Under the pieces are notes generated by a model. That model was not told the origin of the DNA and did not search any database. It saw nothing but the letters and a program-made list of their open reading frames with translations. The position numbers and the translations under genes are program-made. Below, one piece after another: positions 8,647 through 36,492 of a DNA stretch of 64,000 bases (position 1 is its first letter; every line of letters begins with the position of its first letter). The DNA comes from Candidatus Nanoarchaeia archaeon. GTDB taxonomy: Archaea; Nanobdellota; Nanobdellia; Pacearchaeales; GW2011-AR1. The DNA lies in the NCBI GenBank assembly GCA_028713045.1, contig JAQTOY010000002.1, positions 60-64,059 of the forward strand, given 5' to 3'.

Positions 8647-8754
8647 AATATTAAAATAATGGAAACAAATTATATAAATATTATTATATTTTGATATATT
8701 CTTCTGGATAATTACCAACGATAAATTTATAAACGCTTTTTTAAATATAATGAA

Positions 8755-8958
8755 ATGAACGACCCTCATTTAGAATCAAGATTTCCACAAAGAACCGAAA
8801 GGGACAATGCCGTTCCATTTTATTTAACATTGGCAGCTTTTGCTCTAGGCGGATTGCTTTCATTGCCATTCATACCCAGTTGTAGTGAAAACAAAGGAAG
8901 AACAAGTCCTCCAATGATTTATCCAGTAGAGTTTAAATCTATTTATTCCCAAAGATAA
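8755..8958 (+). CDS. possible small membrane protein
   Basis: One TM-like segment (FYLTLAAFALGGLLSLPFI). It overlaps only the discarded upstream part of the 7918 ORF. Confidence 0.35.
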   Translation: MNDPHLESRFPQRTERDNAVPFYLTLAAFALGGLLSLPFIPSCSENKGRTSPPMIYPVEFKSIYSQR

Positions 8959-14829: not shown

Positions 14830-15939
14830 TTAAGGGATTATTTCCGGTCCGAAATATTTTTCATATTCAAAATCTTTTTCAGAAATTCTTTTATTTTTTA
14901 TCAATTCTTTAATCTCCGGAAGTTTATTTATTAATTCATCTATCAAATGCTTGATTGTTTTACAGATAATTTCATCGCCATTTTCAGGCCATAATCCTGC
15001 TTTGTTCCAATATAAGCATCTTCCTCCGCATAAATCTTTATAATCACAAGCTAAGCATCTTCCTTCAACATCAAATTTTCTCAATTTTTCAGGTTCAGAA
15101 TCAAGAGTTCCTGCCTCAAAATCTTTTATGCAATTCATTATTGGGCATGCAATTATTTTTCCATCTGTTGCAATTGCATAACCATAATGTCCTGCTCCGC
15201 AACGCAGTTTTGTAGGCTCATTTTTTAACAAAGAATCAACAATTGCTATAAAAGGATATATCCTAAGAACCTTTCCTTTCTTCAGCTCATTTATCCAATA
15301 ATCAATTAATTTTGAAACAGATTTATTATATTCTTCAACAAATTTAGAAAATGTTTTTTCATTAAAATCAAACTTGAAAAAACCAGCATCCAATTGCCAA
15401 TGATAAGAATCAAATGAGTTTAGATTAATTAAGTTTAAGACTTGTTCATATAAATCCGGAAACTTTTGATCAATAGTCATTCTGGCTATTATCTCTCCTT
15501 TATATCCATTTCTTCTTATGAATTTTATATTCGCTATAACTTTGTCAAAAGTTCCCTTGCCTTTGTTGAAGTCTGTCCTTTCTTTATTTCCATCGATAGA
15601 AACAAGAATCTTATCAATCCGGTTGATGTACTCCGAAGGCAGTTCATGAAGAAGTTTTCCGTTTGTCTGCATTCTAAAAGGAACCTTAATTTCATCCATT
15701 ATTTCTTTTATCTTATCAATCTCCATCAACGGCTCTCCACCATAAAAAATAAGAACAGCATCTCTATCTTTCTCAAGGAATTTTTTCAGTTTTTTAACAG
15801 AAACTTCTGATTTTTCAGGAGCAGAAAAATCAAATTTGAATTTTTTATCAAGTCCATTGTCAAATTCCTCCATAGATTTTTTATAGCAATAATTGCATTC
15901 TGAATTGCATGTTTCTGTTAAAATAATGTGATAGTGCAT
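14830..15939 (-). CDS. radical SAM enzyme with C-terminal SPASM-type Cys cluster (maturase-like)
   Basis: CNSECNYC (CxxxCxxC) at the N-terminus. C-terminal CGAG...ACP...CLACDYKDLCGGRC. Confidence 0.8.
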   Translation of the reverse strand: MHYHIILTETCNSECNYCYKKSMEEFDNGLDKKFKFDFSAPEKSEVSVKKLKKFLEKDRDAVLIFYGGEPLMEIDKIKEIMDEIKVPFRMQTNGKLLHELPSEYINRIDKILVSIDGNKERTDFNKGKGTFDKVIANIKFIRRNGYKGEIIARMTIDQKFPDLYEQVLNLINLNSFDSYHWQLDAGFFKFDFNEKTFSKFVEEYNKSVSKLIDYWINELKKGKVLRIYPFIAIVDSLLKNEPTKLRCGAGHYGYAIATDGKIIACPIMNCIKDFEAGTLDSEPEKLRKFDVEGRCLACDYKDLCGGRCLYWNKAGLWPENGDEIICKTIKHLIDELINKLPEIKELIKNKRISEKDFEYEKYFGPEIIP

Positions 15940-16171: not shown

Positions 16172-16834
16172 ATGCCAGCAACATCGAATAGAAAAAAATT
16201 AATTTGGACAGGAATTACAGGAGCAATTCTAGCAGCTGCTGCAACTTTTGGAATAATGAAATATTCTTGTGATTCAAAAGCTCCTGAAAATCCAAGAGTT
16301 TTAGTGCCTGAAGGATTAAAAACCGGAGTTTTTGATTTAGTAAGATTTAATCCTCAAACGAATGCTTATGAGCCTGTGGATGTAGATGGCAATGGTTATA
16401 CAGAATCAGGGTTGGTGAAAGGCAATGAATTCGTAGATATATTGTGGGGGGTTCCGGGAGTTAGGCCTGAAACAGACTCTCAATATCAACCTGGCAACAG
16501 TCCACGAACAGCTTCTTATGGATATACAAGAATCGCAGGATATAATAATTCTCAAGGATCTCTTGAATTAATGCCTATAGCTCAACCATTACAATCACCA
16601 ACTAACCCCCTTCAAGATTTAATACCTAATAATTTAGGGCTCTCTGAAAGATGTAATGTTGGTCCAGTCGAAACTTCTGTGTTCAGGCTTGATACCCAAG
16701 GGGTTTTAGCTTATTATGAATCTTTAGGAATTAAACCTACCTTTAATTATTCAGCTGTAAGAGATACAATAATCAACAGTCCTCATTCTAAAGGATCAAT
16801 CGGCTATATGAAAAGACGAAGAACTAGTGATTAG
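16172..16834 (+). CDS. membrane-anchored or secreted hypothetical protein (orphan class)
   Basis: I prefer the ATG at 16172 over the tracked GTG at 16160. TATA-like TTTATAAA at 16134-16141. N-terminal helix LIWTGITGAILAAAATFGIM. Confidence 0.55.
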   Translation: MPATSNRKKLIWTGITGAILAAAATFGIMKYSCDSKAPENPRVLVPEGLKTGVFDLVRFNPQTNAYEPVDVDGNGYTESGLVKGNEFVDILWGVPGVRPETDSQYQPGNSPRTASYGYTRIAGYNNSQGSLELMPIAQPLQSPTNPLQDLIPNNLGLSERCNVGPVETSVFRLDTQGVLAYYESLGIKPTFNYSAVRDTIINSPHSKGSIGYMKRRRTSD

Positions 16835-16843
16835 TTCTATATT

Positions 16844-19708
16844 TTATATCTGCAAACTTAGCACCTTTGAAATGCCTTCCTGCATACTGACTCCGTAAAG
16901 TATATTTGAGGATTCTGAAATGATAGAATCATTATGGGTTATTATCAGAAACTGCCCGTCTTTCATATGCTTTTTTAATAAATAAGCAAGTTTTTCTGAA
17001 TTTCTCCGATCCAATGCAGCATCAATCTCATCAAAAATATAAAAGCAATAAGGTCTAAATTCCTGAATTGCGAATATTAAAGATAAAGCAACCAAGGTTT
17101 GTTCTCCTCCTGAAAGTGAAGTCACATCAAAATATTTTCCACCTCCGACTTTTACGAGAACATCTAATCCTGCATTAAAAACTTCCTTTGTGTCTTCCGG
17201 CTCGAGCGTAACTATTCCCTTTACACTTAACTGCGAAAAATTCCTTGAGAACAATTCGTTTATTTTTTCTAATGTTTGCAAAAATGTCTTTTTCTTTTTT
17301 CTATCAATCTGCTCAATCACACTAATTATTTCAAGTTTTTCTTTGTCCAATTGCTCAACTTTTTCTTTTATTCCCTCGTATTCCTTCTTGATTTCATCAT
17401 AAACTTCCAATGCCCTCATATTTACATTTCCTATTCTTGATAAAATCATTTCAGTTTCATTTAATTTTTCAGTTAGCTTTTCAACAGGCATAGATATTAT
17501 TTCAACCCCCTTAAATTCTTCAAATTCCTGCATCAAGCTTTCTTTCCTTGCATTAATCTGGGCCTTTTCAATCATAAGATTGTTTATCTCTCCCTCGGAA
17601 AACCTTTTTTCATTCTGAAAGTTCATAAGATTTGACTCCAGGTTTCTTATATTATCCTGCAGTTCATTTTTATTTTCAAACATCTTCTGGTATTTTTTCT
17701 TAAGTACTTCTGACTGTTTTTCTTTTTCGTCAACAACTTTTTCTTTTTTTACAAGATTTTCCTTTATGTTTTTTAATTCCTCGGTTATTTCTTCCTTATC
17801 TCTTAAATTTTGCCTTATTGCCAGCTTTATTCTCTCAAGTTCTCTCTGTTTTGTTGTTATCTCAACTCCTAAATTTCTTTCCTCAGTTCGTTGAAGTTCA
17901 TTTACCTCAAGCTTTAGTGTTTCATATTGTTCTTCGCTTATTTTTGCATCAGAAAGTTTGTTTTCAACAGCTTTTTTCTTGAATTCAAGATTCTTAAATT
18001 CAGCTTCTAGAGTCTGTATCTGCCCATTGTTTCTTATCAATTGCTGTTTTTTTTCATTTATGTTCCTTATTTTTACAATGTCTATCTCCCTTATGTTATT
18101 TTCAAGCGATTGATTTGCTATCTTATCTTTTAATTCTTTTAATTCCTCTCTGAAACCATTTATCTTGCTTTCGGCTTCCTCAATTATTTTTTTTGCGTTA
18201 GAGATGTTGGAATCAGATTTATGTATTACCTCTTCAATATGCTCAGGGGTTATTTTTGTCTTGCATAAAGGGCAGATGTCAAGTTTTGAAACCTGGGCTT
18301 TTACTTCTTCAGATTCTTTTATAAGGTGATTGTTAACAGATAATGTTTTCTCTCTCTCAATTATTTCAGCTTCAATTCGGGATATGTGCTCCTTGGTTTT
18401 TGCAATAGAATTCCTTATATGAATCAATGCTTCGTTGTGCTTGTCAAGATTTTCTTTAATCCTTATCTCAGATTCCGTCTGTTCAATCTGGTTCAATACA
18501 AAATTAGATTCATTCTTCAGTCTTTGAATCTCCCTCTTTTTATCATCAATCTGACTGTTTAAGGAAGACAATGCAGATTTGAGATTATAATACTCTCTTT
18601 TTGATTCTTCAAAATCATCTAACTTTGCCTTCTTTTTTTCAAACTCTTTCTTAGAATCTTTACCTTTTTCCTTTTTTATTTCTTCAATATCATTTTCATA
18701 GCTTTTAATGGATTCTTCAAGATTATTTCTTCTTCTTTCCAATTCCAAAACCTGATTCTCAAAATTTTCCCTTCTAGCTATCATTGCAGCAATATCCTGT
18801 TTTAATGAAGAGATTTCAGAGATTAATGTGTCCTGCTCAAGACCGGATGACTGCTGGATTGTTTTAGTTATTCTGTCAATCTCAATATTAAGGCCATTCA
18901 TTTCATCCTGAATTTTTTTAATTTGTATTTCCTTTTTTTCTATTTCTTTTTTCTTATAATCTGCCCTTCCCAATATCTCTCCAAGTTCTTTTTCTCTTTC
19001 CTGCAATTTTTTATTTATTATAGAACCTTTGAATCTTTTTACATTCTCCTCCAATTTTTTAAATTTTAATGCCTGTTCTCTTTCATTTTCAAGATTCCTT
19101 AGATAATTTGTTCTTTCCCGCAAAATCGCATTTATTTGTTTTAATTTTTCATCGGTTTTTTCAAGTTCTTTCAAGGATTTTTCCTTTCTCATTTCATATA
19201 CAGAGATTCCAGCAACTTCCTCTATTACTTTTCTTCTTTCTTCAGCAGGCATTTTAACAAATTTTTCAATCTCTCCTTGAAGGACTATGTTAAATCCATG
19301 GGGGTCTATTCCTGCCTGAGAAAGCAGTTCTAAAACTTCCTGTCTTGTTCTTACTTCATCATTTATTTTATAGATGCTAAGTCCATTTTTTCTTACAATT
19401 CTTCTTATGATTATTTCAGCATTTTCAAGTGCAAAAGTTTTGTCAGAGTTATCGAATATAATCTCGACATAAGCTTCATTAGCTCCTTTGTAATCTTTGT
19501 TTCCTGAAAAAATCAGATGCGATGCCTTTGCAGCTCTTATTGATTTAATAGAGAGTCTTCCTAGAACAAAGCATAATGCATCGGTTATATTGGACTTCCC
19601 GCTTCCATTAGGTCCAACAACGACATTGGTGTGCCTGTCAAAGTTTATTTCAGTCTCCCTGGCAAAACTTTTAAATCCTTTCATCGCCAGTTTTTTTATA
19701 TAAGTCAT
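16844..19708 (-). CDS. SMC-family ATPase with a central CxxC zinc hook and no hinge domain
   Basis: SMC-type head motifs GPNGSGKSN, QGEIEKF..ERRKVIEEVAG, LSGGEQTL and FDEIDAALD. CPLC sits mid coiled-coil (codons at 18263-18274). Confidence 0.85.
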   Translation of the reverse strand: MTYIKKLAMKGFKSFARETEINFDRHTNVVVGPNGSGKSNITDALCFVLGRLSIKSIRAAKASHLIFSGNKDYKGANEAYVEIIFDNSDKTFALENAEIIIRRIVRKNGLSIYKINDEVRTRQEVLELLSQAGIDPHGFNIVLQGEIEKFVKMPAEERRKVIEEVAGISVYEMRKEKSLKELEKTDEKLKQINAILRERTNYLRNLENEREQALKFKKLEENVKRFKGSIINKKLQEREKELGEILGRADYKKKEIEKKEIQIKKIQDEMNGLNIEIDRITKTIQQSSGLEQDTLISEISSLKQDIAAMIARRENFENQVLELERRRNNLEESIKSYENDIEEIKKEKGKDSKKEFEKKKAKLDDFEESKREYYNLKSALSSLNSQIDDKKREIQRLKNESNFVLNQIEQTESEIRIKENLDKHNEALIHIRNSIAKTKEHISRIEAEIIEREKTLSVNNHLIKESEEVKAQVSKLDICPLCKTKITPEHIEEVIHKSDSNISNAKKIIEEAESKINGFREELKELKDKIANQSLENNIREIDIVKIRNINEKKQQLIRNNGQIQTLEAEFKNLEFKKKAVENKLSDAKISEEQYETLKLEVNELQRTEERNLGVEITTKQRELERIKLAIRQNLRDKEEITEELKNIKENLVKKEKVVDEKEKQSEVLKKKYQKMFENKNELQDNIRNLESNLMNFQNEKRFSEGEINNLMIEKAQINARKESLMQEFEEFKGVEIISMPVEKLTEKLNETEMILSRIGNVNMRALEVYDEIKKEYEGIKEKVEQLDKEKLEIISVIEQIDRKKKKTFLQTLEKINELFSRNFSQLSVKGIVTLEPEDTKEVFNAGLDVLVKVGGGKYFDVTSLSGGEQTLVALSLIFAIQEFRPYCFYIFDEIDAALDRRNSEKLAYLLKKHMKDGQFLIITHNDSIISESSNILYGVSMQEGISKVLSLQI

Positions 19709-19810: not shown

Positions 19811-20098
19811 ATGTCAGAAAGAAGAGATATAACAGTTCATTTATGGAATGGAAAGGGATATGATAAACATACTCTGGACTTTAATAAAGGAGATGCCGGA
19901 AGTTACGCCGAGTGTGAAAGAAGATTTTTAGCTTTGCTACCTCCCTTAGGATTATCTGATAGAACTGCTGCAAGATACCATTCTGATTTTAACGGAGTTT
20001 CAACAGCTTTATTTAATGGATATTATAGGAGAGGAGCCGAACATGCATCAATTGCTCTTAGACCTGATAAAAGAATTAGACTAGAACCAAGATTATAA
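19811..20098 (+). CDS. hypothetical protein (orphan class), 95 aa
   Basis: Intact ORF convergent on the end of the Ubl-type operon. Confidence 0.45.
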   Translation: MSERRDITVHLWNGKGYDKHTLDFNKGDAGSYAECERRFLALLPPLGLSDRTAARYHSDFNGVSTALFNGYYRRGAEHASIALRPDKRIRLEPRL

Positions 20099-20115: not shown

Positions 20116-23100
20116 CTAATCCTCCCCTAATAGAAGCTGTTTTGGAGCTAGTTGAATTCTCCGCCCACTTTCAACTTTTTCTAGATATCTATCCAATAAC
20201 CCGGGGTCTAAATTAAATTCTGCTTCAATTCTTTTTCCAACTCTAGTCAATAATTCTCTTGTCCTGTCAGGTCCATAATAATCAACAGTTCTTGCATAGA
20301 TGCATGAATGATCAAATTCTACTCTATCATAAATATGTTCATCTCCGGACATTCTTTTTAATAATCTTCTTTCCTGTTTACTTAGCCTTCCAAAAGTGTT
20401 CTTATCAACCTGCCCAATTAAAAATAATTGGCCATCATAAGCACCAGACTCATATTGAGGGTATAGCCTAAAGCCATTTTCAACTTGCTCTAATCTATGA
20501 TTTCCCTGAATATTTACTGGAACTCCCAAACCTCTTAACATCTCTATTTCACTTCTTACATCAATTGCTTGAGTATATGATAAATAAACAGGTTGTGGAT
20601 TGGCTATACAAACAGAGACTTTTTTATGCCTCGGTTCTTCTTTTAATATTGTTATTGGAATTCCTTTTTTTACCAAAGCTTCAACCTGGCTGTCAATGAA
20701 ATGCTGATCATGATGTATTCCTAAAAAATCTAAATGTAAATATTCTCCTAAGGAAATTACAATTCTCCTATCATTGTTATCGCGATAATGCTCCTTATCA
20801 ACGCTTGCATTTAAATAATAATTAGATTGAGATAAGGGGTATAATGGAACTCTGCCCAAAGAAGCTAATAAATCTTTTTCCGGCAGTCTTTCTCTTAAAT
20901 AAAAAAACTGCCTGTTTCTTGGATCATCTTTGTTCATTAAAGCTATTTCCTCCAATAAAAACAATCCGCATTTTTCCAAATCAACATCTTTAGGAGTTAT
21001 GCATAATTTCATAACATCTTTGCATCCATCAGGTTCATCTTTTATCCAAGTTCTTCCGTAAGTTTTTGCTTTTTCAGGTTGCTTTCTTTTTCTCTCTCTG
21101 TCCTCTGCATAAGCATTATTTATGGCTAATCGAACATTTCCACCAGTTTCCAAACATCCTTCTAACATTCTTCCAACTTCCCATTCACTAAAATATTTTC
21201 TCTTTTCACCTGATGCAGCTTCTTCAACCATTTCAGCAACTTGAGTTAAAGCTCCCTGAGGTCCTTCTCTTAAACCAAGCGTAGCAGCTAAAATAAGGTT
21301 AGAAACTTCCATTGCTTCTGCAAAATCAACTCCATCTCCTTCTTTAAAACCTTGTAATCTTCCAAGAACATCTAAATAATTCGGTAATCTTCCAGTTCCA
21401 CCTCTTGCTGCTATTAACATTCTCTGCCCTAAACTTGTTTGAAATGGATTAGTCTTTGGCCGTGTTCTTGAAGCGATTATGTCATCAATTGCCCTGGAAA
21501 TTAATGGATTATTATGTGAATGTTTTAAAACAAATTTACCAGCATCCTCGTGGGAATAACCAAAAGATAATAACGGCCCCATAACAAATTCATCCAATCT
21601 TCCCATTAAAGAACTATAATCTTCACCTGGTTTGATTAAAGGAGCTTGTTCAAGTTCGTTTTCCCAATTTGTTTCGCGATAGCGACCACGTTCTTCTGAA
21701 GGTCTGTTTATTAACTGTTGACGTTTTCTTTCTTTTGCTTTTTGTTTTTCATGTTGGGCATATTCATCTAATTTAGCTTCTAAAAATTCTCTTGCATGTA
21801 ATGCAGTTTCTTTAAATCTATCTCCTGCAGATTCCAATACTTCGGTTTGATGACGTAAAAAATAATAAACTAATTCTAATTCAAAACTATTGCATACTTG
21901 CCTATAACCATCAAGACCAACTACTTCTAAACTGCTAAAAGCGACAGAATTTTGTTCCTCTGGATTTGTCATATTCGTATAAAGATTAGCTCCCCACTCT
22001 GCCACATCACCATGATCATGTATTTCTGTTAAATAACCCTCAAGACCTCTTCCATTGTAAGTTCTTCCTCTAACTCTTCTAAAATAATATTTATCTGATA
22101 ATTCAGGCATTCTTAATTCAGCGTCAGCTCTTTGACTGCCAAATAAAACTAATTCCTCCGGAGACATTGAAAGCAATTTTGCAGATTCACCAATCATAAC
22201 ATCTGCAAATTTCCTATAATATCTGATTTCCTTTAATAATTCTCTTAATTTTGGCAGAACACTTGGAGCCAAATCTTTTTGTCTTACCCCTCCAATTTTT
22301 AAAACATCGTCTAAAGAAACTCCGTAATCTTCGTTCATGCATTCAACTACCTCGCGAGGTGATGCTCCAGTTTCTAACAATGATCTGTACTGCCTTCGCA
22401 ATAATCCCTGATGCTTAATATGGTGCGTGTAGGTTCTAGGATCCTCTCCATATTTTACTAGTGTTGGAACTACAACCTCCTCCACTTCGTCATCTCTCAT
22501 TAATGGTGTGGAGGTTACATCTTCCATATCCCAGCAACCGTTTAACCTGACAAGTAATAAATCATCAATAAAACCTCTGATTTTTGTAAAATACCTATCT
22601 TGATTTTTTCTAGCGTAACGCCGAGTTTTCCCATCAAATCCTTTGATAAAAAATACTCTCTGCTCGTAATTTCCATCGGTTCTTTCAATCACTCCTAATC
22701 TTGATTTTGGGGGCAGAATATTTCCTAAATTTGGAACACAGGAATGCTCGCCTGTTTTCGGATGATTTGGATATTCAACACAATAAACCAAATCTCCAAC
22801 ATTTTCAGGTAGTAAGGAATTCTTTTTAAATGGATTGGCATTTCTAAATCCTCCGTGCAATCCATCATGAACAAATTTTCTGAATGATTCCATGGAATCA
22901 ATAACTCTTGTTTGAACATGCATTCTTGTTGATAAATCAGGTTCATCACATTCTGCATACGGGCCGCATCCTATTTCAACACGAACTTTTCCAGCTTCAT
23001 CCCAGTCAGGAAAAGCAAGTCCAGTAACCGGCCCACCATTAACAAAAACTACGTCCTTATGTTCGGTCCCTCTTCTTGGCGAGTATTTAGGAAAAGGGAA

Positions 23101-23322
23101 TTCTTCGACAAAAACCAATTTTTCTTCTAAATCTCGGATAATACTCATTGCCAATTCATAATATAAATTTCCTTCAGACATTTGAACTAGTCTGGAATGG
23201 TTATCATCTATTTCAGCTCTTCTTTGGAATAAATCCACATCCTGCAATCTAAGTGTAGAATTTAACAAATTTCTTGCTAAAGGGTCTGTTGTTATTTGCA
23301 GTAGACTATTCAGGTTTGCCAT
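20116..23322 (-). CDS. large protein of unknown function (1068 aa), last gene of the Ubl-type operon
   Basis: Uninterrupted 3.2-kb ORF. 17-nt overlap with the upstream gene. No P-loop or other motif recognised. Confidence 0.75.
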   Translation of the reverse strand: MANLNSLLQITTDPLARNLLNSTLRLQDVDLFQRRAEIDDNHSRLVQMSEGNLYYELAMSIIRDLEEKLVFVEEFPFPKYSPRRGTEHKDVVFVNGGPVTGLAFPDWDEAGKVRVEIGCGPYAECDEPDLSTRMHVQTRVIDSMESFRKFVHDGLHGGFRNANPFKKNSLLPENVGDLVYCVEYPNHPKTGEHSCVPNLGNILPPKSRLGVIERTDGNYEQRVFFIKGFDGKTRRYARKNQDRYFTKIRGFIDDLLLVRLNGCWDMEDVTSTPLMRDDEVEEVVVPTLVKYGEDPRTYTHHIKHQGLLRRQYRSLLETGASPREVVECMNEDYGVSLDDVLKIGGVRQKDLAPSVLPKLRELLKEIRYYRKFADVMIGESAKLLSMSPEELVLFGSQRADAELRMPELSDKYYFRRVRGRTYNGRGLEGYLTEIHDHGDVAEWGANLYTNMTNPEEQNSVAFSSLEVVGLDGYRQVCNSFELELVYYFLRHQTEVLESAGDRFKETALHAREFLEAKLDEYAQHEKQKAKERKRQQLINRPSEERGRYRETNWENELEQAPLIKPGEDYSSLMGRLDEFVMGPLLSFGYSHEDAGKFVLKHSHNNPLISRAIDDIIASRTRPKTNPFQTSLGQRMLIAARGGTGRLPNYLDVLGRLQGFKEGDGVDFAEAMEVSNLILAATLGLREGPQGALTQVAEMVEEAASGEKRKYFSEWEVGRMLEGCLETGGNVRLAINNAYAEDRERKRKQPEKAKTYGRTWIKDEPDGCKDVMKLCITPKDVDLEKCGLFLLEEIALMNKDDPRNRQFFYLRERLPEKDLLASLGRVPLYPLSQSNYYLNASVDKEHYRDNNDRRIVISLGEYLHLDFLGIHHDQHFIDSQVEALVKKGIPITILKEEPRHKKVSVCIANPQPVYLSYTQAIDVRSEIEMLRGLGVPVNIQGNHRLEQVENGFRLYPQYESGAYDGQLFLIGQVDKNTFGRLSKQERRLLKRMSGDEHIYDRVEFDHSCIYARTVDYYGPDRTRELLTRVGKRIEAEFNLDPGLLDRYLEKVESGRRIQLAPKQLLLGED

Positions 23323-24217
23323 CCGAAGGTAAAAGATTAAGTTTTAATAAATCTGCTCCGGCCCGAGTTAAATCATAGATTCCAAGCACCTTCATAGAAT
23401 ATAAAATTTTTAATCTTGATGGAATCTCCGGCATTCTAACAATCTCTGACAATCTAAATTGTTCTCTGAAAGGTTCATCCAATAAATCGTGCACTACTGC
23501 CGAACATAAGGTATTGCATAAATCATTATGATCAACAATTTCTTCTCTTAATCTCCTGTTCCTTAACAATGGAAATTTTTGTATTAATAATTCTCCGACT
23601 TGAATTAATTGGCCACTGACTTCACAATCTAGAATCGACAGCTTTTCTTCGCTTCTTCTTCTAACCCATTCTTCCAAGGCAGTATCTAAATCATGACCAT
23701 ATCCTGAGACAAGTGCTGCTAGATTCTCACCTTGCAAGGATTTTCTTGCAAATCTTACTTCACCTTGGTATAGTGCTGTGCTTGCTTCAACAAACCGGTC
23801 GTATAATACCTCAAAATGATGATAAGAATGACTTGAATTTGTTAAATAACTCATAACATTATCCAAAAAAGTACAAACCAATGTTCCTTGAAGTTTTTCA
23901 GGAGGAATTCTATCAGGAACTTCCTCTCTCCCATATCTTTCTTTTTCTTCATCTAAATCAAATAATCCTCGTAATAATTTTACAACCCCTGAACTATATT
24001 CATCAGTTCCAGATTGGTAATCTAAATACTTGTCAAATCTTTTAGTTGCTTCATCAATTTTTCTAAAGCGTGTTCTATTAACTAGAACCCGAGCAACATA
24101 TTCTGGTATAGTAACTCTGCTTCTAGGCAAGGTAACAACTTCTCTAAAAACTCCAGGGCCACTTTCCTCATCTAAAAAATCCCTAAACAATAATTCCCCA
24201 GGATTCTGATCGTTCAT
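23306..24217 (-). CDS. protein of unknown function (303 aa), operon gene 5
   Basis: Intact ORF starting 3 nt after the E1-like gene. Probably helical, no motif recognised. Confidence 0.65.
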   Translation of the reverse strand: MNDQNPGELLFRDFLDEESGPGVFREVVTLPRSRVTIPEYVARVLVNRTRFRKIDEATKRFDKYLDYQSGTDEYSSGVVKLLRGLFDLDEEKERYGREEVPDRIPPEKLQGTLVCTFLDNVMSYLTNSSHSYHHFEVLYDRFVEASTALYQGEVRFARKSLQGENLAALVSGYGHDLDTALEEWVRRRSEEKLSILDCEVSGQLIQVGELLIQKFPLLRNRRLREEIVDHNDLCNTLCSAVVHDLLDEPFREQFRLSEIVRMPEIPSRLKILYSMKVLGIYDLTRAGADLLKLNLLPSDGKPE

Positions 24218-24220
24218 TTT

Positions 24221-25774
24221 TTATTTTACCCTCCTTAAAATATCACCTTCCTCTTCATACCATTGGTTAAAAGGTTTTCCTTTTACCCTTATTTCTTCAC
24301 CTTGCGAGTTTATAATTCTTTCTACTTCGCAACTTTTAAGGGGTACAAAATATGGAACCTTGGTCCCAAGGTCATTATCCGGACTTACTCTAACATATTC
24401 AAATCTTGGGTGCTCTTTCATGCTGTATTTAAACTGCCCCTGTAATGGATGTCCTGAAAACAGATTAACAGTTTCTCCTGCTAAAATAGCAGCACACAAT
24501 GACGTGATTAGAGCTTGAGAGGGTAATACTTCTGGATCTGTGCAATGTCTATGAGTTCGTCTGATTGAATCTAAATATGCCTGTTTTAAAAAATCATATT
24601 GATACAACATTGACGATGTTTGTCCAGGCGCATAAGCATATACTACAAGACTGGAATCATCGCAAGCTCCAAGCAATAACGGAATCCTGTGCTGTTGAGA
24701 GTAATTAATGACTCTCATCTGATTGTCAAATCCATCAACAGCACTCACTAATAAATCAACTTCAGGAAAATTGCTTTTTTCATCAAATCTTTCGGTTTGT
24801 GCATGATATCTTGTTCTTGTTTTTCTTCTGTTAAAATGCCTTCTTGCTGCAACTGCCTTATATTCTCCCTCTTCATCAACGCAATGCGGTGCACGTGAAA
24901 AATTAGAGATTTCCCATTTATCAAAGTCTCTTATATAGAAACTCCGAAATCCTAAATCATGAGTTGCTTCAAGATACATAAGTCCAATAGCCCCACAGCC
25001 AATAACTCCAATTCTTTTTTCTAATGGATTAAAACTTGACCAATCAAAATTATTTTCATGAGAGGTTCTTGAATCTGATAATAGATTCCAGGTAATTACC
25101 TCATCATGTTTAAGTTCTTGGCCATAATCAAATGATCTTCTTACTATTTCTGATAATCCCAGTGCCGCGCATGCCATTGAGGTAATTGTTGTTTGAGGTC
25201 TTCTATTTAATCGTCTTTGAGGCATTAAAAATTCAGGTCTAATTGCAGCTTGTGAATTATAATCTACAATCCTTAATTCATGGAAATTAGAGGCCCCTAA
25301 AACCAATAAAGTATTTTTTTCATCAGCAGATCTAAATGGCAAGGATTTAGAATTCACTCCCCATGATCTTGCAAGATTTTGCAATAAATATCTTTTTTCT
25401 TCCCAATCATTGCCTGAATGAAAAGCATAATTCATGAAAAATCCCATATTCTGAACTGTTTCAGTCCTAATTCCAGAACATAATCCTCCGACGCTAATAT
25501 TTGGGTTTAATCCTTGCACAATCTCACCAATTCTAGTTGCAATCTCTTCTCCTCTGCTAATCTCTTGGCCCATAAAACTCTGGCTATTTCTTGCTCTTTC
25601 ATCATTTGCGCAGATTATCCTGCCGATTTCCAAGCAACTTCCAAGCAAGGTTGCATACCTTGATGTTAACCCTCTTCCAAGAGTGTATAATAATGCTTCA
25701 TCTAAGGTTTCTTGATTCCAACCTTTAATCAGTTGTTGCCTAGCGATTCTATTGCTAACCATCCAAACCTCCAA
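24221..25774 (-). CDS. ThiF/MoeB/E1-like adenylyltransferase with a ~250-aa N-terminal extension
   Basis: RIGVIGCGAIGLMYLE...IRDFDKWEISNFSRAP (GxGxxG plus DxD..SN..R, codons 24893-25009). Then YKAVAARR, AVDGFDNQMR and SLCAAILAGETVNLFSG. Confidence 0.8.
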   Translation of the reverse strand: MEVWMVSNRIARQQLIKGWNQETLDEALLYTLGRGLTSRYATLLGSCLEIGRIICANDERARNSQSFMGQEISRGEEIATRIGEIVQGLNPNISVGGLCSGIRTETVQNMGFFMNYAFHSGNDWEEKRYLLQNLARSWGVNSKSLPFRSADEKNTLLVLGASNFHELRIVDYNSQAAIRPEFLMPQRRLNRRPQTTITSMACAALGLSEIVRRSFDYGQELKHDEVITWNLLSDSRTSHENNFDWSSFNPLEKRIGVIGCGAIGLMYLEATHDLGFRSFYIRDFDKWEISNFSRAPHCVDEEGEYKAVAARRHFNRRKTRTRYHAQTERFDEKSNFPEVDLLVSAVDGFDNQMRVINYSQQHRIPLLLGACDDSSLVVYAYAPGQTSSMLYQYDFLKQAYLDSIRRTHRHCTDPEVLPSQALITSLCAAILAGETVNLFSGHPLQGQFKYSMKEHPRFEYVRVSPDNDLGTKVPYFVPLKSCEVERIINSQGEEIRVKGKPFNQWYEEEGDILRRVK

Positions 25775-26957
25775 TATCTCTTTTTTCTAATCTTTCTTTT
25801 AATTCCATAGCATTACAATAACTTGGAGAAACCCCTCTTAAAATTCCATCAACAGAATTATACTGCTGTTCATATCCGCTTCCATTAACAAATGGATTGC
25901 CAAATAAATCCAGGACCCTTTGAACTGTTTGAACATCTGCCATATTAGCTTTTGGATCCGATCTGGCAAAAGTCATAAAGTGATTAAGCAATCTAAATAA
26001 ATCTCCTCCAGTCATAGGCAATTTTCTTTCCAAATCTCTTAGCAACTGAGGATCATGATAAAATATTGATGAATGCTGAATTGACCGAGGTATAACCGTA
26101 GGCCTTTTTATTTCTGGAATGACCAGTGGCTTTACATGATAGTTAATCTCCGCTCTTATCATTTCTGAATCAAATTCTGAAACAACATCATCTTCAACTT
26201 TTAATTCTAATCCATCCCGCTTTTCTAATAATCTATAACTTTCAGGGCCTCCATTGAAACAGTATTTTTTATATTCTCCAAGTCCAAACCAAGGTTCTTC
26301 AATACCTCTGCAATAAATTAAAAACAAGCTGTAACCTTGGTTTACTCTAAAATAAATTTTTGGTTCTCCTCTATCTCTGAGAACAACGCCGTCTTGAGAT
26401 TTTAATGCTTCTCGAATATTATCTCTAGTATCAACTTGTGCAAATTCATTGCTGACATCAGCCCAGCCATAAAAATTCTGATAAACCCAGTTATCTCCTG
26501 TAAATTTTTTAAAAGTATCCAAATCTACATGAGAGGGCTCTAAAAATTCTCCTGGATGGATATGAGTTATTCCAAATAATCTCAATGGATTTTCTCTCTT
26601 TTCCTCATTTATTGAATCTAATCTTCGTAAGAATTCATCCGCACTTGCAGCAGAATAATCTACAAGCCCCGGACTAACTAATTGATGCATTAGCATTGCA
26701 TCTTCGATTCTATTGGGGGATGACTCCCCGTATACATTCATAAATCCAACTTCAAATCTTCTTAAGTAAGGAAAATGTTCATCCATAACAGAAACATATT
26801 CCTTGATTTTTCTATCAACACTTCTTGGTAAAACCCATTTTAATGGAGTTTGAATAAGAGTTTCAGCTGTTTCTGATTTATGGCCAACCACACTTTCTCC
26901 CCTTACTATTGCATCCATTGCTTCATCCAAATCATCAACAACTAATGCGTGTTTCAT
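25755..26957 (-). CDS. JAMM/MPN+ (JAB) metalloprotease-domain protein with a ~250-aa C-terminal extension
   Basis: E69 in RRFEVGFMNVYG, then THIHPGEFLEPSHVDLD, which matches HxHx7Sx2D (codons 26523-26564). Confidence 0.8.
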   Translation of the reverse strand: MKHALVVDDLDEAMDAIVRGESVVGHKSETAETLIQTPLKWVLPRSVDRKIKEYVSVMDEHFPYLRRFEVGFMNVYGESSPNRIEDAMLMHQLVSPGLVDYSAASADEFLRRLDSINEEKRENPLRLFGITHIHPGEFLEPSHVDLDTFKKFTGDNWVYQNFYGWADVSNEFAQVDTRDNIREALKSQDGVVLRDRGEPKIYFRVNQGYSLFLIYCRGIEEPWFGLGEYKKYCFNGGPESYRLLEKRDGLELKVEDDVVSEFDSEMIRAEINYHVKPLVIPEIKRPTVIPRSIQHSSIFYHDPQLLRDLERKLPMTGGDLFRLLNHFMTFARSDPKANMADVQTVQRVLDLFGNPFVNGSGYEQQYNSVDGILRGVSPSYCNAMELKERLEKRDIGGLDG

Positions 26958-28342
26958 TGTTGAACACCTCGGGTTTCTGTTAAATCATGAATATTAGTTT
27001 TAATTAAACCCCTTCTGCCAACTTCGGCTTCAGTTATTGGAGTCATCCCTTCAATATTTCTATGATGAGAACCAGGACTCATTCCATTTTGCAGAGTTCC
27101 AACTCCATCTATCATTATATAATCAACAACATTTTCCGTCCAGGGTCTTGTTGATGTAGGTTTATAATCTAAAGGACCACAAAATGTTTGTGGATGACCT
27201 AAACGAAATTCATGATTAACAAACAAAAAATCTCCATTAACCTGAATTTTAGAAACTTCTACTCCTAAATCCGAATACTTCAGAAAAACTCCAACCTCGG
27301 GAGGATTTTCAAACGGATAATATAAATTCGGATCGGTTAAAGATCTCATTGCATAAGGAGGAGGTTTGATATAAACATAAAGACATTGATGTTTTCTGTC
27401 TTCTCCATAATCTCGTTCTCCTGGAAATGCATATGGAAAAAAATGAATTCCACTGTTTTCATGGCAAATATCAGTTTCTGATAATTTTACATTTCCTTTT
27501 AATCTAGAGCAAAATTCAATGAATTCATCAACTCTTTTTGCATTCAATGTTCTTGCTGCTTCATTTAAATAATTTTGAGTTCTAAACCCCTGGTATTTTT
27601 TAACATATTCTTCTGGAGTTATTTCCCCTCGTTTTCTGAATAATCTTCTATTGCCTCTTTTATCAACAACTTCAACATTTCCAACAAATTTTCTTGGCTC
27701 TAATTCATAAATTACAGGCTTAACTTCATCATGACGAAATCCAGGTTTTTCATAGATTAATAAATTCGGATTAAAATCAAAACTATCTGATAATTCTAAA
27801 TGCCTGTCAATGCCAGTTCTTTCTTCAAAATCCTGGTCTGCCTCAGCCTGTTCTGCCTGTTCTTTTTTCAATAAATCTGATATGCTTCTTCTGACCATTT
27901 GCCTTGTTAATCTTCTTTTTGAAGTGCTCTCTGAAATCATTCCTAAAAATTCTCTTTTTCTTAATTCCAATAATTCGCTTCTTGGAGTAGTTGCAATCCG
28001 GCTGTCAAATTCCATTAAAGCAGGCAAAACATCACTAAAAACATGAAATAACAATAAACTCTGGTCTTTTGACATTTCTATATCCATTAAGGTTTGAAAT
28101 GCCCTTTCAACTGCCTTAGCCTTAAATTCATTAATATTAAGAGCATTGCAAACAGAATCGCAATGGCAAATATTTTCAAGACGTCCTTCATAAGACAATG
28201 ACCCGAGAACTTTGCCTTCAACTTTTAAAACCCCAGAGTTAGGAATTCTTGAAGAATGCAGAAGATAACAATGGCCATTTAAAATTATTCCATGATGACC
28301 GATTAATCTTTCAAAACCATAAAATTGTAATTTGTCAATCAT
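26954..28342 (-). CDS. protein with a C-terminal E2/UBC-like (or UEV/RWD-like) region; N-terminal part unknown
   Basis: CLYVYIKPPP...YYPFENPPEVGVFLK resembles the canonical E2 segment F.L.I.FP.DYPFKPPKV.F. It is followed by GHPQTFCGP (His-Pro plus Cys). The spacing is atypical. Confidence 0.45.
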   Translation of the reverse strand: MIDKLQFYGFERLIGHHGIILNGHCYLLHSSRIPNSGVLKVEGKVLGSLSYEGRLENICHCDSVCNALNINEFKAKAVERAFQTLMDIEMSKDQSLLLFHVFSDVLPALMEFDSRIATTPRSELLELRKREFLGMISESTSKRRLTRQMVRRSISDLLKKEQAEQAEADQDFEERTGIDRHLELSDSFDFNPNLLIYEKPGFRHDEVKPVIYELEPRKFVGNVEVVDKRGNRRLFRKRGEITPEEYVKKYQGFRTQNYLNEAARTLNAKRVDEFIEFCSRLKGNVKLSETDICHENSGIHFFPYAFPGERDYGEDRKHQCLYVYIKPPPYAMRSLTDPNLYYPFENPPEVGVFLKYSDLGVEVSKIQVNGDFLFVNHEFRLGHPQTFCGPLDYKPTSTRPWTENVVDYIMIDGVGTLQNGMSPGSHHRNIEGMTPITEAEVGRRGLIKTNIHDLTETRGVQQ

Positions 28343-28396
28343 ATGAGGAGCTTAGGATAATATTTAAGTCCCTCTTTTAAAACCTAATGCCCTAAA

Positions 28397-30022
28397 TCAA
28401 CCAGTCGGTCTTCCAGCAGTAGCAGTTGCAGTGGTTGTATAGGCAGTATGCTTTTTCCTTTCTGGAGGGGGCGAAGGTTTATCTCTATCTTTTGGTTTAT
28501 CAGGCTCTGTTATTGTTAACTCACTTTTATATTCTGTAAACACCGTTCTGAATGGAACAGTTAAATCATATCTTTGACCATTAAAAAATACAGTATGGTC
28601 TCCTCTTTGTCTTTTTAAAAATTCTTTTGCATTGTCACGGTCGCGTGGCTGCGTAAAATGAGATTCATCAGCTAAATATTCATAAAAATCCCCGACAGTC
28701 TGAGGTAAAGCATCTTCTGGAAAAACAATACCTAACGCGGCTTGTCCTAACTTAATTCTAACTCCATAATGTTTTACTTCAGGAATATCCTCTCCAGGTT
28801 TGCTTGTAGCAGTTTGTCCAACAACGCCAGGAGTTGCAACAGCAGCTGCTGAAGAATCTGCAAGAGTTGATTCAAGTCCTTTTCTTCCAACAGGAGTTCT
28901 ACTGCTTGCATCATCTAATGAAACCTGACTAGTTAAATCAATACTAGGCCCGCTAATGCCGGAATCTGTAGTTTGAGTTAATTTTGGTAAAACTGGTTCA
29001 TAACCTTTTTCTATTTGTGTTTCCTTAAAAGCACCTGCGGCTTTTTCTAATTCCTTTAACTTAGGTAAAAATTCCGCTCTAGATTTAGCAACTCTTGGAG
29101 AAACTTGTTCAAATCTTAATCTAGCAGGATTTCTTTCCGGAAGTCTTTTTACAGAGGAGTTTGTAAGCGCTTTTTCAGCATCTTTACTCTGTTGAGTATA
29201 ACTGGTATTTGCAGTTTGATAAGTTTGAACAACTGCCTCAGAAGCTAAATATGCAGGAGTTAATAAACTTCCAAAAGCAGCTGTACTTTCTTCAAGTGTT
29301 CTTACAAAATTCTCTAAAGTTATTGTTGCATCAACAACTTCAACAACGAGCTTAGGTTCAACAGTTGTTTTGATAAGTTTCGGTTTTCTTTGAGGCGGTT
29401 GTGCAGGAGCAGTAGGTTTAGCAGGAGATGCACTAGGTTTAGCTGAAACTCCTAACTCTTTTGCAGCATCTTCAAGAGAAAGAAGTGAGCCATTATAAAG
29501 CCCTGCTCTAGATAATTCTGAATCAATTTTAGCATATTGGAATTTGCTAGTATCCGGTTTAGTTTTTTGTCCTCTTAAGAATAATCTTCTGCCTTGTTTT
29601 AAATCCACTGAATAATCTCTTCCAGCCTCTCTTGGAGCATCAACCTTTATCAATTTAACAATAGTTCCAGTTTGATAATGAGCAGGACCTGAGCCATATT
29701 TCGCAGCAACCGCCTTTGCAAGTTCGTTTGGAACAGAAGCAACAGCAACTCTTGCAGGTTGGGGTGCCTTAACCTCGTCATAATCAACAGCAAGTTCTTG
29801 AGGTAATAATGCTTCAACATAATGATAATTTCTTACAGTATCTGCTGATTTCATTCCCTCAGCATCATGGGCGATTTTCTCTAAATTCACTCTTGCAGTA
29901 CGAATACCTTGGTTTCCTAGAAATCCAGCCTGACATTGAGAATATAATTCAGCAAGAGATTTTGAATGCGGATATCCTTGCATTGGTTTTCCATTAGGTC
30001 CTGTAATAACTTGCTGAGACAT
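28397..30022 (-). CDS. 541-aa low-complexity protein with a ubiquitin-like segment near the C-terminus and a terminal Gly; first gene of the operon
   Basis: HTVFFNGQRYDLTVPFRTVFTEYKSELTITE aligns with ubiquitin [31 protein letters not shown]. The ORF ends ...ATAGRPTG-stop. A/P/S/T-rich linkers. Confidence 0.6.
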   Translation of the reverse strand: MSQQVITGPNGKPMQGYPHSKSLAELYSQCQAGFLGNQGIRTARVNLEKIAHDAEGMKSADTVRNYHYVEALLPQELAVDYDEVKAPQPARVAVASVPNELAKAVAAKYGSGPAHYQTGTIVKLIKVDAPREAGRDYSVDLKQGRRLFLRGQKTKPDTSKFQYAKIDSELSRAGLYNGSLLSLEDAAKELGVSAKPSASPAKPTAPAQPPQRKPKLIKTTVEPKLVVEVVDATITLENFVRTLEESTAAFGSLLTPAYLASEAVVQTYQTANTSYTQQSKDAEKALTNSSVKRLPERNPARLRFEQVSPRVAKSRAEFLPKLKELEKAAGAFKETQIEKGYEPVLPKLTQTTDSGISGPSIDLTSQVSLDDASSRTPVGRKGLESTLADSSAAAVATPGVVGQTATSKPGEDIPEVKHYGVRIKLGQAALGIVFPEDALPQTVGDFYEYLADESHFTQPRDRDNAKEFLKRQRGDHTVFFNGQRYDLTVPFRTVFTEYKSELTITEPDKPKDRDKPSPPPERKKHTAYTTTATATAGRPTG

Positions 30023-30050: not shown

Positions 30051-30058
30051 CTTTAAAA
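30051..30058 (-). promoter_or_regulatory. TATA-like box for the Ubl-type operon
   Basis: TTTTAAAG on the minus strand, 29-36 nt upstream of the ATG at 30022. Other TTTATAAA boxes in the window sit at the same distance from their start codons. Confidence 0.35.
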
Positions 30059-35274: not shown

Positions 35275-36492
35275 TTATCTTCTGCTCAACATCTGGTCAA
35301 CAAAATTTCCAACTCTCATTCTCATAACATTTCCGGGAAGAACAATTGATGGAGGAGGATTATATCCTCTTTCTCGCATTCCTTCGAAAATTCTTTCTCT
35401 CCAGTATTTTTGTTGACTCCCCGGTTCAATATCTGGAAAGTCTTCAAGAACACCCTCTGGAGAATATTGTTCAAAAACTTTTCTAAAAATCTGGCCAGTA
35501 ATATGCTCAACCCCTCCATCCATTACAAGAGCATCAACTTGTCCAGTATTGCAAATATTCATAGCAGTACAAATTCCAAATGCGGCAAAGACATTTGTTC
35601 CCCCATATTTTCCAAGAGTTGCAAGTTCATCAGCAACTTTTTTTCCAAGTTTCCCAACTGTACCGCCAGGGTTGAGGAAATAATCTCCAGTGTCTTCAAT
35701 AACTAATACATTATATGTTCTTGAAGAAGCTTTTCCCGGAACTGAATAAACCATGCAATCAGGAAATTTTTCAATTAATGGAACAGTCCGGTCATTTTTA
35801 TTTCTAATTCTATTAGCATAATCTGTTATTTTTCTAGTCTCAATTTCAGAATGTCTAACCATGCCTTGTTCATGCTCTCTTCTTATTGCCTCAAGCTCAA
35901 ATTCAGTCATTGCTTTAACCTTATCAACATCTCCTGCTTGCATTGCTTCATTTATAGTCCTATTCTTGCATAAAATTGGAGGTAATTTAAATCCTCTTTC
36001 TTTAAGTGAACACATAATCGCAAGATAAACCGATTCATAAAAACTATCGGAGCCATCCGGACGTCTTAGGGATTCTAAGGTGACTGTTTCATAGTCCATA
36101 TAACCATATGACCCAACATTCATACCTCCAATCGCATGAACTAAACTTATTATTCTCTCTCTATCAACTATTCTTGGATCTTCATTTATTTTACTATCAT
36201 TAAGAAATGTTGAAAGGCTTCCCGAACTCTGAAAAATTATTTCATCATCAAACATTATTTTATATTTTTGTTGACACCATCTATCTACTCCCCCTCTATG
36301 AAGTTCCCTCTTAAAGTTATGCTGAAAATCTACGTGATATCCTCGCCCCAATCTTAGAGTTTCTCGAAATTTTATTTCTCTTCTAATTCTTCCATCAAAT
36401 TTTTGAGGTTTTAATACTAATTCTGCTTCTTGATGTGTAACTGCTGATAAAACCTCTAATGAGTCTCTCAAAGTATCTTCTAAGTCTTCCAT
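35275..36492 (-). CDS. hypothetical protein (orphan class), 405 aa; weak receiver-like C-terminal segment
   Basis: Intact ORF. NVLVIEDTGD...VDALVMDGGVEHITGQIF is only loosely CheY-like. Confidence 0.6.
   Translation of the reverse strand: MEDLEDTLRDSLEVLSAVTHQEAELVLKPQKFDGRIRREIKFRETLRLGRGYHVDFQHNFKRELHRGGVDRWCQQKYKIMFDDEIIFQSSGSLSTFLNDSKINEDPRIVDRERIISLVHAIGGMNVGSYGYMDYETVTLESLRRPDGSDSFYESVYLAIMCSLKERGFKLPPILCKNRTINEAMQAGDVDKVKAMTEFELEAIRREHEQGMVRHSEIETRKITDYANRIRNKNDRTVPLIEKFPDCMVYSVPGKASSRTYNVLVIEDTGDYFLNPGGTVGKLGKKVADELATLGKYGGTNVFAAFGICTAMNICNTGQVDALVMDGGVEHITGQIFRKVFEQYSPEGVLEDFPDIEPGSQQKYWRERIFEGMRERGYNPPPSIVLPGNVMRMRVGNFVDQMLSRR

Follow-up and report, generated by a model that had tools for sequence, protein, structure and literature searches.

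A six-gene cassette of a nanoarchaeal contig, with a predicted two-domain E1 and a putative JAMM peptidase, resembles the Bil operons in plan

Complete operons for the conjugation of ubiquitin-like proteins (Ubls) are known from the bacterial Bil, type II CBASS and Bub systems and from a few eukaryote-like archaeal cases. The bacterial BilABCD operons (types I and II; formerly 6C/CEHH) are antiviral Ubl-conjugation operons with the gene order Ubl-E2-JAB-E1 (PMC11601596). Their E1, BilD, combines an inactive and an active adenylation domain with a cysteine-bearing insertion, as in eukaryotic E1s (PMC11601596; 10.1101/2023.09.26.559546). The modifier, BilA, begins with coiled-coil or low-complexity domains, and past its conserved glycine lie up to nine residues, which are trimmed by BilC (10.1101/2023.09.26.559546). 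Here we describe a cassette of six genes in a 64,000-nucleotide (nt) stretch, hereafter called the window, of contig JAQTOY010000002.1 from a Candidatus Nanoarchaeia archaeon. We suggest, with a probability of about 0.55, that it is a Bil-like operon for Ubl conjugation and deconjugation, in which three components (the products of genes 2, 5 and 6) are unrecognisable.

The cassette spans approximately 10 kb of the contig and consists of six consecutive minus-strand open reading frames (ORFs) between positions 20116 and 30022. In the order of transcription, with lengths in amino acids (aa), these are:

28397 to 30022, minus strand: gene 1, 541 aa, putative Ubl precursor; orthologues in loci L001, L004, L009, L010, L012 and L014
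26954 to 28342, minus strand: gene 2, 462 aa, protein of a new family (ORF listing, AlphaFold2 model and family searches)
25755 to 26957, minus strand: gene 3, 400 aa, putative JAMM/MPN+ metallopeptidase with a C-terminal extension of ~170 aa
24221 to 25774, minus strand: gene 4, 517 aa, predicted two-domain E1 with a degenerate ThiF domain (inactive adenylation domain, IAD, residues ~1-245), an active adenylation domain (AAD, 253-466) and a C-terminal extension of ~50 aa
23306 to 24217, minus strand: gene 5, 303 aa, orphan protein (p303), translationally coupled to genes 4 and 6; orthologues in L001, L004, L005, L007 and L014
20116 to 23322, minus strand: gene 6, 1068 aa, orphan multidomain protein (p1068); orthologues in L001, L004 and L014, fragments in L005, L007 and L015

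From gene 1 to gene 6, the junctions are a gap of 54 nt, overlaps of 4 and 20 nt, a gap of 3 nt and an overlap of 17 nt. The length of 517 aa for gene 4 is obtained from a TTG start; the NCBI call uses the ATG at 25762 and gives 513 aa, which shrinks the overlap with gene 3 to 8 nt. A preliminary description of this DNA had reported the six minus-strand genes with these coordinates and junctions, which agree with the ORF listing of the window, and all the motifs that it quoted (GVIGCGAIG, DFDKWEISNFSRAP, AVDGFDNQMR, HIHPGEFLEPSHVD, YYPFENPPEVGVF, GHPQTFCG, VFFNGQRYD...SELTITE and the terminal Gly) are present in the translations. In the NCBI annotation five of the six proteins are labelled hypothetical and the 517-aa protein is a ThiF family adenylyltransferase.

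The complete cassette, in the same order, was found in three further archaeal loci (L001, L004 and L014), with different flanks each time, and fragments are present in L005, L006, L007, L009, L010, L012 and L015. Gene order does not vary among any of these loci, and neighbouring genes overlap slightly or lie close together. The loci were reached through the contigs of gene 2 and E1 relatives, and L015 through a metagenome scan with the 1068-aa protein. Since orthologues of all six proteins keep this order in L001, L004 and L014, the cassette is not a chance run of ORFs, and its operon status and its co-location in other genomes are supported. Each of the six proteins is homologous to its counterparts in the other loci (BLASTP). 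Among the four complete cassettes, pairwise identity amounts to 43-48% for the E1, 31-37% for the JAB protein, 28-36% for gene 2, 28-32% for p1068, 18-32% for p303 and 17-25% for gene 1. That all six remain homologous despite such deep divergence (17-48% identity) indicates that the genes are held together under selection.

In the gene 4 protein, the Pfam ThiF model (PF00899) matched residues 253-466 with E=7.4e-19 (score 68 bits, cut-off 28). The GxGxxG, DxD and DGFDNQM motifs and residues N291, R294, K306, D347 and C411 are invariant in the six E1 orthologues; the earlier identification of this protein as a ThiF/E1 enzyme is therefore confirmed. The distant relatives of the adenylation domain in the PDB are MccB (the best, E=4e-5) and UBA3, UBA5, TcdA and Cap2 (~1e-3). 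A profile of the N-terminal 245 residues matched Escherichia coli ThiF (1zud, 1zfn) over the Rossmann region at a borderline E=1.2e-3. This N-domain has a degenerate glycine loop and lacks the Asp/Arg motifs, and a Pfam scan of the isolated N-domains yielded E=0.22 in one orthologue only. The N-half and the C-half of the E1 did not align significantly with each other in hhalign, and the domain is called an IAD because its profile matches ThiF. When the E1 was compared with BilD by hhalign, the two aligned collinearly but weakly (E=0.015, probability 2.9%). The ThiF match of a domain with a degenerate loop, together with the weak BilD match, argues for a pair of inactive and active adenylation domains within a single chain. 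A further conserved element lies in the insertion of the active domain:

24542 to 24544, minus strand: codon of Cys411, from the alignment of six E1 orthologues

Cys411 is part of the invariant motif H-C411-[TN]-D-P-E, which is located in an insertion of ~35 residues at the crossover-loop position, as judged against the E1 architecture described in 10.1101/2023.09.26.559546, and is a candidate for the catalytic cysteine of the E1. With the borderline match of its N-domain, gene 4 is predicted to have the IAD-AAD-CYS layout of BilD and eukaryotic E1s. The C-terminal ~50 aa that follow the adenylation domain (24221-24380 in the window) are conserved as well, with the pattern ...E-x-I-x-V-x-G-x-P-F-x-x-W-Y.... 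In canonical E1s this position is occupied by the ubiquitin-fold domain that recruits the E2.

The second recognisable enzyme is encoded by gene 3, which contains the following motif:

26523 to 26564, minus strand: JAMM motif H132-I-H134-PGEFLEP-S142-HV-D145, read from the sequence

The catalytic set E69 ... H132-x-H134-x7-S142-xx-D145 is invariant in six to seven orthologues. The Pfam Prok-JAB model (PF14464) matched the L004 and L006 orthologues with E=7.5e-4 and 2.5e-3, under its gathering score, and the 400-aa protein of the window itself was matched only by a PADLOC JAB model (E=0.015). When a seven-sequence profile was compared with the PDB, nine of the 12 top weak matches were JAMM proteins aligned on the motif; AfJAMM, an Rpn11-like protein, JAMM1 and BRCC36 were at the top (E=0.04-0.5), and a Mov34 protein was also among the 12. 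We accept gene 3 as a JAB/JAMM family member and putative peptidase, as had been proposed earlier: the catalytic set is invariant, and the profile matches agree with it but are sub-threshold.

The proposed tag precursor is the product of gene 1. Its seven orthologues, 312-541 aa in length, share one common layout. The N-terminal part comprises a G[YF]P motif (GYPHSK in the window), a small beta-rich domain, a Pro/Ala-rich linker and a helical region of ~130 residues. In the C-terminal part, a conserved domain of ~95 residues, which matches the L001 orthologue with E=5e-9 (BLASTP), is followed by a variable linker and by a V-x-V-like stretch leading to (G/A)-G. The corresponding features of the window are:

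28493 to 28774, minus strand: conserved ~95-aa C-terminal domain of gene 1 (residues ~417-510), from the seven-sequence alignment
28400 to 28417, minus strand: gene 1 tail A536-G537-R-P-T-G541, from the alignment of seven orthologues

The C-terminal ends of the seven orthologues, with a slash after the conserved glycine, read:

window: ...ATAG/RPTG
L001: ...PPAGG/LA
L004: ...TQGGG/VG
L009: ...VASAG/HLARPYNTLETIL
L010: ...AEGG/AVLL...
L012: ...TRGG/SNGG...
L014: ...PQGG/SNA

In 7/7 orthologues (G/A)-G is thus followed by a variable tail of 0-21 residues, and the Ubl-like C-terminus that the preliminary description had seen in the 541-aa protein is supported. Read from the alignment, this end carries the signature of a Ubl precursor that would need trimming by a deubiquitinase. 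We propose that the site of activation is either Gly537, after trimming by the JAMM protein, or the terminal Gly541. The tail of 35 aa mentioned in the preliminary description probably includes the last strand leading into the glycine. A beta-grasp fold of the C-terminal domain is proposed from its hydrophobic alternation, which is compatible with the order beta-beta-alpha-(alpha)-beta-beta-beta. Gene 1 had no match in Pfam, the PDB or PHROG.

Gene 2 occupies the position of BilB in the operon. An exhaustive HMMER search of 1.84 billion representatives detected 13 relatives at E<=1e-3, and a word-indexed search of 5.8 billion clusters found only two; another homologue search gave only 4 proteins, though the family has at least 13. 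One codon of gene 2 is of particular importance:

27179 to 27181, minus strand: codon of Cys388 in the TFCGP motif, from the alignment of 13 gene 2 sequences

C388 and G420 are the sole invariant residues across the 13 family members, and N419-G420 was also noted. The histidine of the GHPQ motif is not conserved in the family, and the PP pair of YPFxxPPxV is gone in the two most distant relatives. An AlphaFold2 model based on the 13-sequence alignment reached a mean predicted local distance difference test (pLDDT) score of 81 and a predicted template modelling score of 0.73; a first run with a three-sequence alignment had a pLDDT of 40, and its Foldseek result was meaningless. Around Cys388 the model contains a helix, several strands, a long loop bearing the cysteine and a long helix, an order that a much-decorated UBC core could give.

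The two most distant relatives of gene 2, P0017 and P0016 (E~9e-4), have a differing gene context (L008, 1543 nt, and the P0016 contig). Each stands next to a small upstream protein, which has 130 aa on the P0016 contig and ends in ...KITGA in L008. The downstream protein of L008 has SH3/Tudor-like KVGD repeats in place of a JAB domain.

The remaining two proteins, p303 and p1068, had been described as unrecognised, and they are indeed orphans: neither they nor their orthologues matched anything in Pfam, NCBIfam, PHROG, PADLOC or the PDB. An all-against-all hhalign comparison of the six cassette families revealed no paralogy. Cys181 of p1068 (GDLVYC) is invariant, and the protein is rich in conserved motifs. 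In four orthologues its C-terminus (20116-20160 in the window) consists of AP-x-x-LL-x-G followed by 0-12 mostly acidic residues. This end resembles a Gly-terminated conjugation substrate, which raises the possibility that p1068 might itself be a substrate of the E1, by analogy with the CD-NTase as substrate of Cap2. p303 is the least conserved of the enzyme-sized partners. It ends in E-[ED]-G-Y and a short tail in five of six orthologues; the window copy differs and ends in ...SDGKPE. In the other loci these ends are found at:

L001 ~17560-17595, L004 ~15265-15301, L014 ~12020-12072: C-terminal motif of p1068
L001 14700-14762, L004 12320-12375, L005 2650-2708, L007 2010-2074, L014 8810-8877: E-[ED]-G-Y end of p303

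Based on these observations, we suggest a scheme for the action of the cassette. It starts from what the loci display directly, namely a conserved gene order, an E1 whose adenylation domain is preceded by a degenerate copy, the catalytic residues of a JAMM protein, a conserved glycine followed by a tail, and invariant cysteines. Gene 1 would encode a large precursor, in which the tag is formed by the conserved ~95-aa C-terminal domain and the V-x-V...(G/A)-G tail. The JAMM peptidase encoded by gene 3 would trim the residues past the glycine and would also reverse conjugation. The exposed glycine would be adenylated by the E1, which would then hold the tag as a thioester on Cys411, and from there the tag would move to Cys388 of the gene 2 protein, in an E2 role without a recognisable UBC fold. 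p303 and p1068 would serve as specificity (E3-like) or effector subunits, directing delivery to the targets. What we infer beyond the features just listed concerns the beta-grasp fold of the tag, the relay of thioesters, the parts played by genes 2, 5 and 6 and the biological purpose. As for the purpose, antiviral defence is the leading, though tentative, suggestion, made by analogy with Bil, CBASS and Bub, and we would give it somewhat less than an even chance. There is a realistic chance, though well below even, that the novelty goes further, with gene 2 being a structurally new, non-UBC thioester carrier, p303 and p1068 a new E3 or target-recognition module, and the downstream half of the system either independently invented or diverged beyond recognition.

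Several results weigh against a Bil-like conjugation operon. The profile of the gene 1 C-terminal domain found no beta-grasp match in the PDB, and hhalign comparisons of gene 1 with ubiquitin/NEDD8, ThiS/MoaD and BilA were non-significant (probabilities <1%). With the whole multidomain model of gene 2, rather than its isolated domains, as the query, Foldseek gave a best E of 0.79 and TM values of ~0.1 or less in a PDB copy that runs to April 2026 and postdates the Bil, Cap2 and Bub structure papers, and none of the 50 matches listed was an E2; the same model had no match in BFVD. An hhalign comparison of gene 2 with the eukaryotic E2s UBE2D2, UBE2N, UBE2I and UBE2L3 aligned only 8 residues (YPFxxPPxV) with a probability of 1.7%, and a comparison with E. 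aridi BilB aligned nothing. Among the PADLOC defence models, those for Bil and CBASS included, only weak, generic matches to the Cap2 adenylation domain and to JAB were obtained, and over Pfam, NCBIfam, PHROGs and PADLOC together the six proteins and their orthologues gave just ThiF and weak JAB matches. Genes 5 and 6 match no known family, and the cassette is flanked by housekeeping genes, with no recognisable defence genes.

The preliminary description had regarded the 462-aa protein as E2-like, with a UBC-like fold. This assignment did not stand: the model of pLDDT 81 showed no UBC fold when compared with the PDB and BFVD, the 13 family members had no match in Pfam (E2 models included), the family profile found no E2 and nothing relevant among the PDB sequences, and the 8-residue motif is all that these searches left. 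Membership of the E2/UBC family is rejected on present evidence, as neither the structure searches, made with the whole multidomain model, nor the profile searches recognised an E2. Yet the operon position and the lone invariant cysteine remain, and we therefore keep the idea that gene 2 works like an E2 while rejecting the family membership. That it acts as a thioester carrier on Cys388 is our leading hypothesis.

The two recognisable components of the cassette, the E1 and the JAMM peptidase, might also belong to an E2-free carrier system, either of the SAMP/UbaA type or of the ThiS/MoaD/CysO sulfur-carrier type with a Mec+-type JAMM. The E1 would then activate the gene 1 glycine for direct conjugation or thiocarboxylation, and genes 2, 5 and 6 would be unrelated enzymes or partners. 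Such a system would agree with the fact that no other component is recognisable and that the gene 2 model has no UBC match; moreover, E2-free sampylation is known in archaea, and the weak sequence neighbours of the E1 include ThiF, MoeB, MccB and TcdA. However, the architecture of the E1 points elsewhere, as a two-domain pseudo-dimer with an invariant cysteine insertion is a hallmark of transfer-competent enzymes (BilD), unlike the homodimeric ThiF, MoeB and UbaA, and the NCBIfam SAMP-E1 model scored 19 bits against a cut-off of 450. Furthermore, the Pfam and NCBIfam scans revealed no rhodanese, cysteine desulfurase, ThiG, MoaE or CysM-type partner, the tag precursor has 312-541 aa instead of the ~70-100 aa of a carrier, and the single invariant cysteine retained by gene 2 fits a thioester acceptor. 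On balance we consider an E2-free system unlikely.

An arrangement like that of type II CBASS appears rather improbable, although it is compatible with the Bil-like operon that we prefer. Here the E1 would act on p1068, a sensor or effector enzyme whose C-terminus would be the cargo, much as Cap2 conjugates the CD-NTase; the JAMM protein would be an antagonist in the role of Cap3, and gene 1 would provide a scaffold or a second substrate. The AP-x-x-LL-x-G end of p1068 with its 0-12 mostly acidic residues in four orthologues would suit such a cargo, but the Gly-tail pattern of gene 1 is stronger and more regular. Likewise, Cap2-type E1-E2 models are the best PADLOC matches of the E1 (E~1e-5) and Cap2 is among its PDB matches, but these matches span the generic adenylation domain only, the E1 is not fused to an E2, and the library scans detected no CD-NTase or nucleotide-signalling domain in p1068 or elsewhere in the cassette. 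Finally, MccB being the best PDB sequence match of the adenylation domain (E=4e-5), one could think of a MccB/PaaA-like cluster for peptide modification, of the type that makes ribosomally synthesised and post-translationally modified peptides, or of another small-molecule cluster with a ThiF-like adenylating enzyme. This match is only marginally better than those of UBA3, UBA5 and TcdA, the cassette has no gene for a short precursor peptide, a transporter or immunity, and the JAMM peptidase together with a large protein with a conserved GG-type end favours protein tagging; we regard a cluster of this kind as very improbable.

The known distribution of the cassette is confined to about a dozen DPANN-type metagenome lineages. 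A scan of 185,579 GTDB species representatives gave one match, the L001 contig, which belongs to an archaeal metagenome-assembled genome and carries the cassette between genes for histone, S27e, eIF2-alpha and Nop10; in L004 the flanks are Trm1, aEF-1-beta and RTC. No cassette was found in viral contigs scanned with the E1 and JAB proteins, p1068 had no tblastn match in phages, tblastn of the E1 against plasmids revealed ordinary ThiF genes only, and a first metagenome scan for further cassettes found nothing. The neighbours of the L010 fragment (1-2102) are bacterial-type genes, a fusion of a YgiQ radical-SAM protein with an RluF pseudouridine synthase and a DnaQ/PolC-type exonuclease; some carriers of the cassette may be non-archaeal, or these genes may have been transferred.

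In all four genomes the G+C content of the cassette is 2.5-5% above that of its flanks, with the excess at codon positions 1 and 2; the G+C content of third positions (GC3) and the choice of Arg codons are those of the host genes. The window cassette adjoins the SMC gene downstream and genes for a bPH_2 membrane protein, RNase HII and LemA upstream, with no adjoining tRNA or integrase gene. A recent horizontal insertion is rejected on account of the host-like GC3 and Arg codons and by the lack of an adjacent tRNA or integrase gene. The cassette therefore looks like an old accessory module. The preliminary description had taken it for an inserted island, and the patchy distribution and the variable flanks agree with this in part, but the host-like codon use means that any insertion was not recent.

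Two promoter-like boxes can be seen in the window:

30051 to 30057, minus strand: TATA-like box TTTTAAAG, ~30 nt upstream of the gene 1 ATG, read from the sequence
28375 to 28382, minus strand: TTTTAAAA box within the 54 nt that separate gene 1 from gene 2, ~35 nt before the gene 2 ATG

The TATA-like box reported earlier is thus present, though at the G+C content of the window (30-37%) both TTTTAAAG and TTTTAAAA are statistically unremarkable. The TTTTAAAA box may act as an internal promoter, which could uncouple expression of the tag from that of the enzymes.

Several other ORFs of the window were noted:

19811 to 20098, plus strand: Arg-rich ORF of 95 aa, convergent with the end of the cassette, labelled hypothetical protein by NCBI
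13498 to 14742, plus strand: protein of 414 aa with weak matches to Ig-like domains (NPCBM_assoc, FixG_C)
7169-7852, 7918-8769, 16172-16834, 35275-36492, 39886-40455 and 53983-54468: low-Lys ORFs

The 95-aa ORF had no match in the family libraries and no homologue beside the cassette in the other loci. The 414-aa protein may be a surface protein, as far as its weak domain matches tell. The six low-Lys ORFs share this composition with the cassette, in a genome that is otherwise rich in Lys and Ile, and five of them are also high in Arg; they have no Pfam match and no kinship with either the cassette proteins or the other loci.

The host lineage is known for very small genomes. The retention of all six genes through such deep divergence implies that their function is important. 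A limited check of the full-text literature revealed neither a cassette of this kind nor any other complete Ubl-conjugation operon for DPANN archaea. Beside a predicted two-domain E1 of the canonical type and a putative JAMM peptidase, the cassette encodes four families that lack annotated relatives among billions of sequences, and its gene 2 protein is modelled confidently yet resembles neither solved structures nor predicted viral ones. Should the thioester relay exist, the system might constitute a natural test of whether E2/E3 function can ride on a different fold, and would add an archaeal branch to the debate on the origin of ubiquitin-type conjugation. If it is antiviral instead, it would represent a rare defence mechanism for episymbiotic archaea.

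The preliminary description held that the architecture matches no known system. This is too strong. The sequences show nothing of Bil beyond a weak generic match to BilD, and two genes are extra; in plan, however, genes 1 to 4 correspond in position to the Ubl-E2-JAB-E1 order of Bil, the E1 is predicted to be of the BilD type (IAD-AAD-Cys) and the N-terminal domains and tails of gene 1 are BilA-like. The order of tag, Cys protein, JAB and E1 is shared with Bil, although the second gene here is not a recognisable E2, and so are an E1 with inactive and active adenylation domains and a cysteine-bearing insertion, Ubl proteins with coiled-coil or low-complexity N-terminal domains, and the absence of a RING E3. 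Both systems also have residues past the conserved glycine, which the JAB protein trims in Bil and is proposed to trim here. In contrast, hhalign comparisons with E. aridi BilA, BilB and BilD showed no detectable similarity to the first two and a weak generic match to BilD, and PADLOC added only generic E1-E2 and JAB matches, so that membership of the BilA, BilB, BilC or BilD families is not seen at the sequence level. The gene 2 model matches no E2 structure in the PDB, the cassette proteins are 2-5 times larger than their Bil counterparts, and the two extra genes (303 and 1068 aa) are conserved. The hosts are DPANN-type archaea, whereas Bil hosts are bacteria, and no associated regulators of the CapW or CapH/CapP type were seen.

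Type II CBASS (Cap2/Cap3) likewise combines a ThiF-type adenylation domain and a JAB peptidase in one operon, and it supplied the best PADLOC match (E~1e-5). The cassette differs in having a dedicated tag precursor gene, in lacking an E1-E2 fusion and any match to CD-NTase or effector models, and in that the matches are confined to the adenylation domain. Bub (6E/DUF6527) resembles it as an operon in which a Ubl, variable in its N-terminal domains, is encoded together with an E1, a peptidase and an E2-like protein. However, the Bub E1 and E2 are without catalytic cysteines and use oxyesters, whereas the E1 and the gene 2 protein of the cassette each keep an invariant cysteine; Bub also has gene fusions and a DUF6527 serine protease, and the library scans found no DUF6527 match in the cassette. 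With the SAMP/UbaA/HvJAMM and Urm1-type systems the cassette shares an archaeal host, an E1-like enzyme, a JAMM peptidase and a Gly-terminated modifier, but those systems work with small modifiers of the ThiS/MoaD type and a homodimeric E1 of one domain, and they lack partners in an operon. The eukaryote-like Ub/E1/E2/RING/Rpn11 operon known from Caldiarchaeum and from Asgard archaea is also an archaeal operon with an E1, a JAMM protein, a modifier and transfer components; here, the six proteins and their orthologues had no match to the Pfam ubiquitin, UQ_con or RING models, and eukaryotic E1s are only distant relatives. The Bub, type II CBASS, SAMP/UbaA and Caldiarchaeum/Asgard systems each miss at least one defining feature, and the closest known system is BilABCD, to which the cassette is alike in plan and not in sequence.

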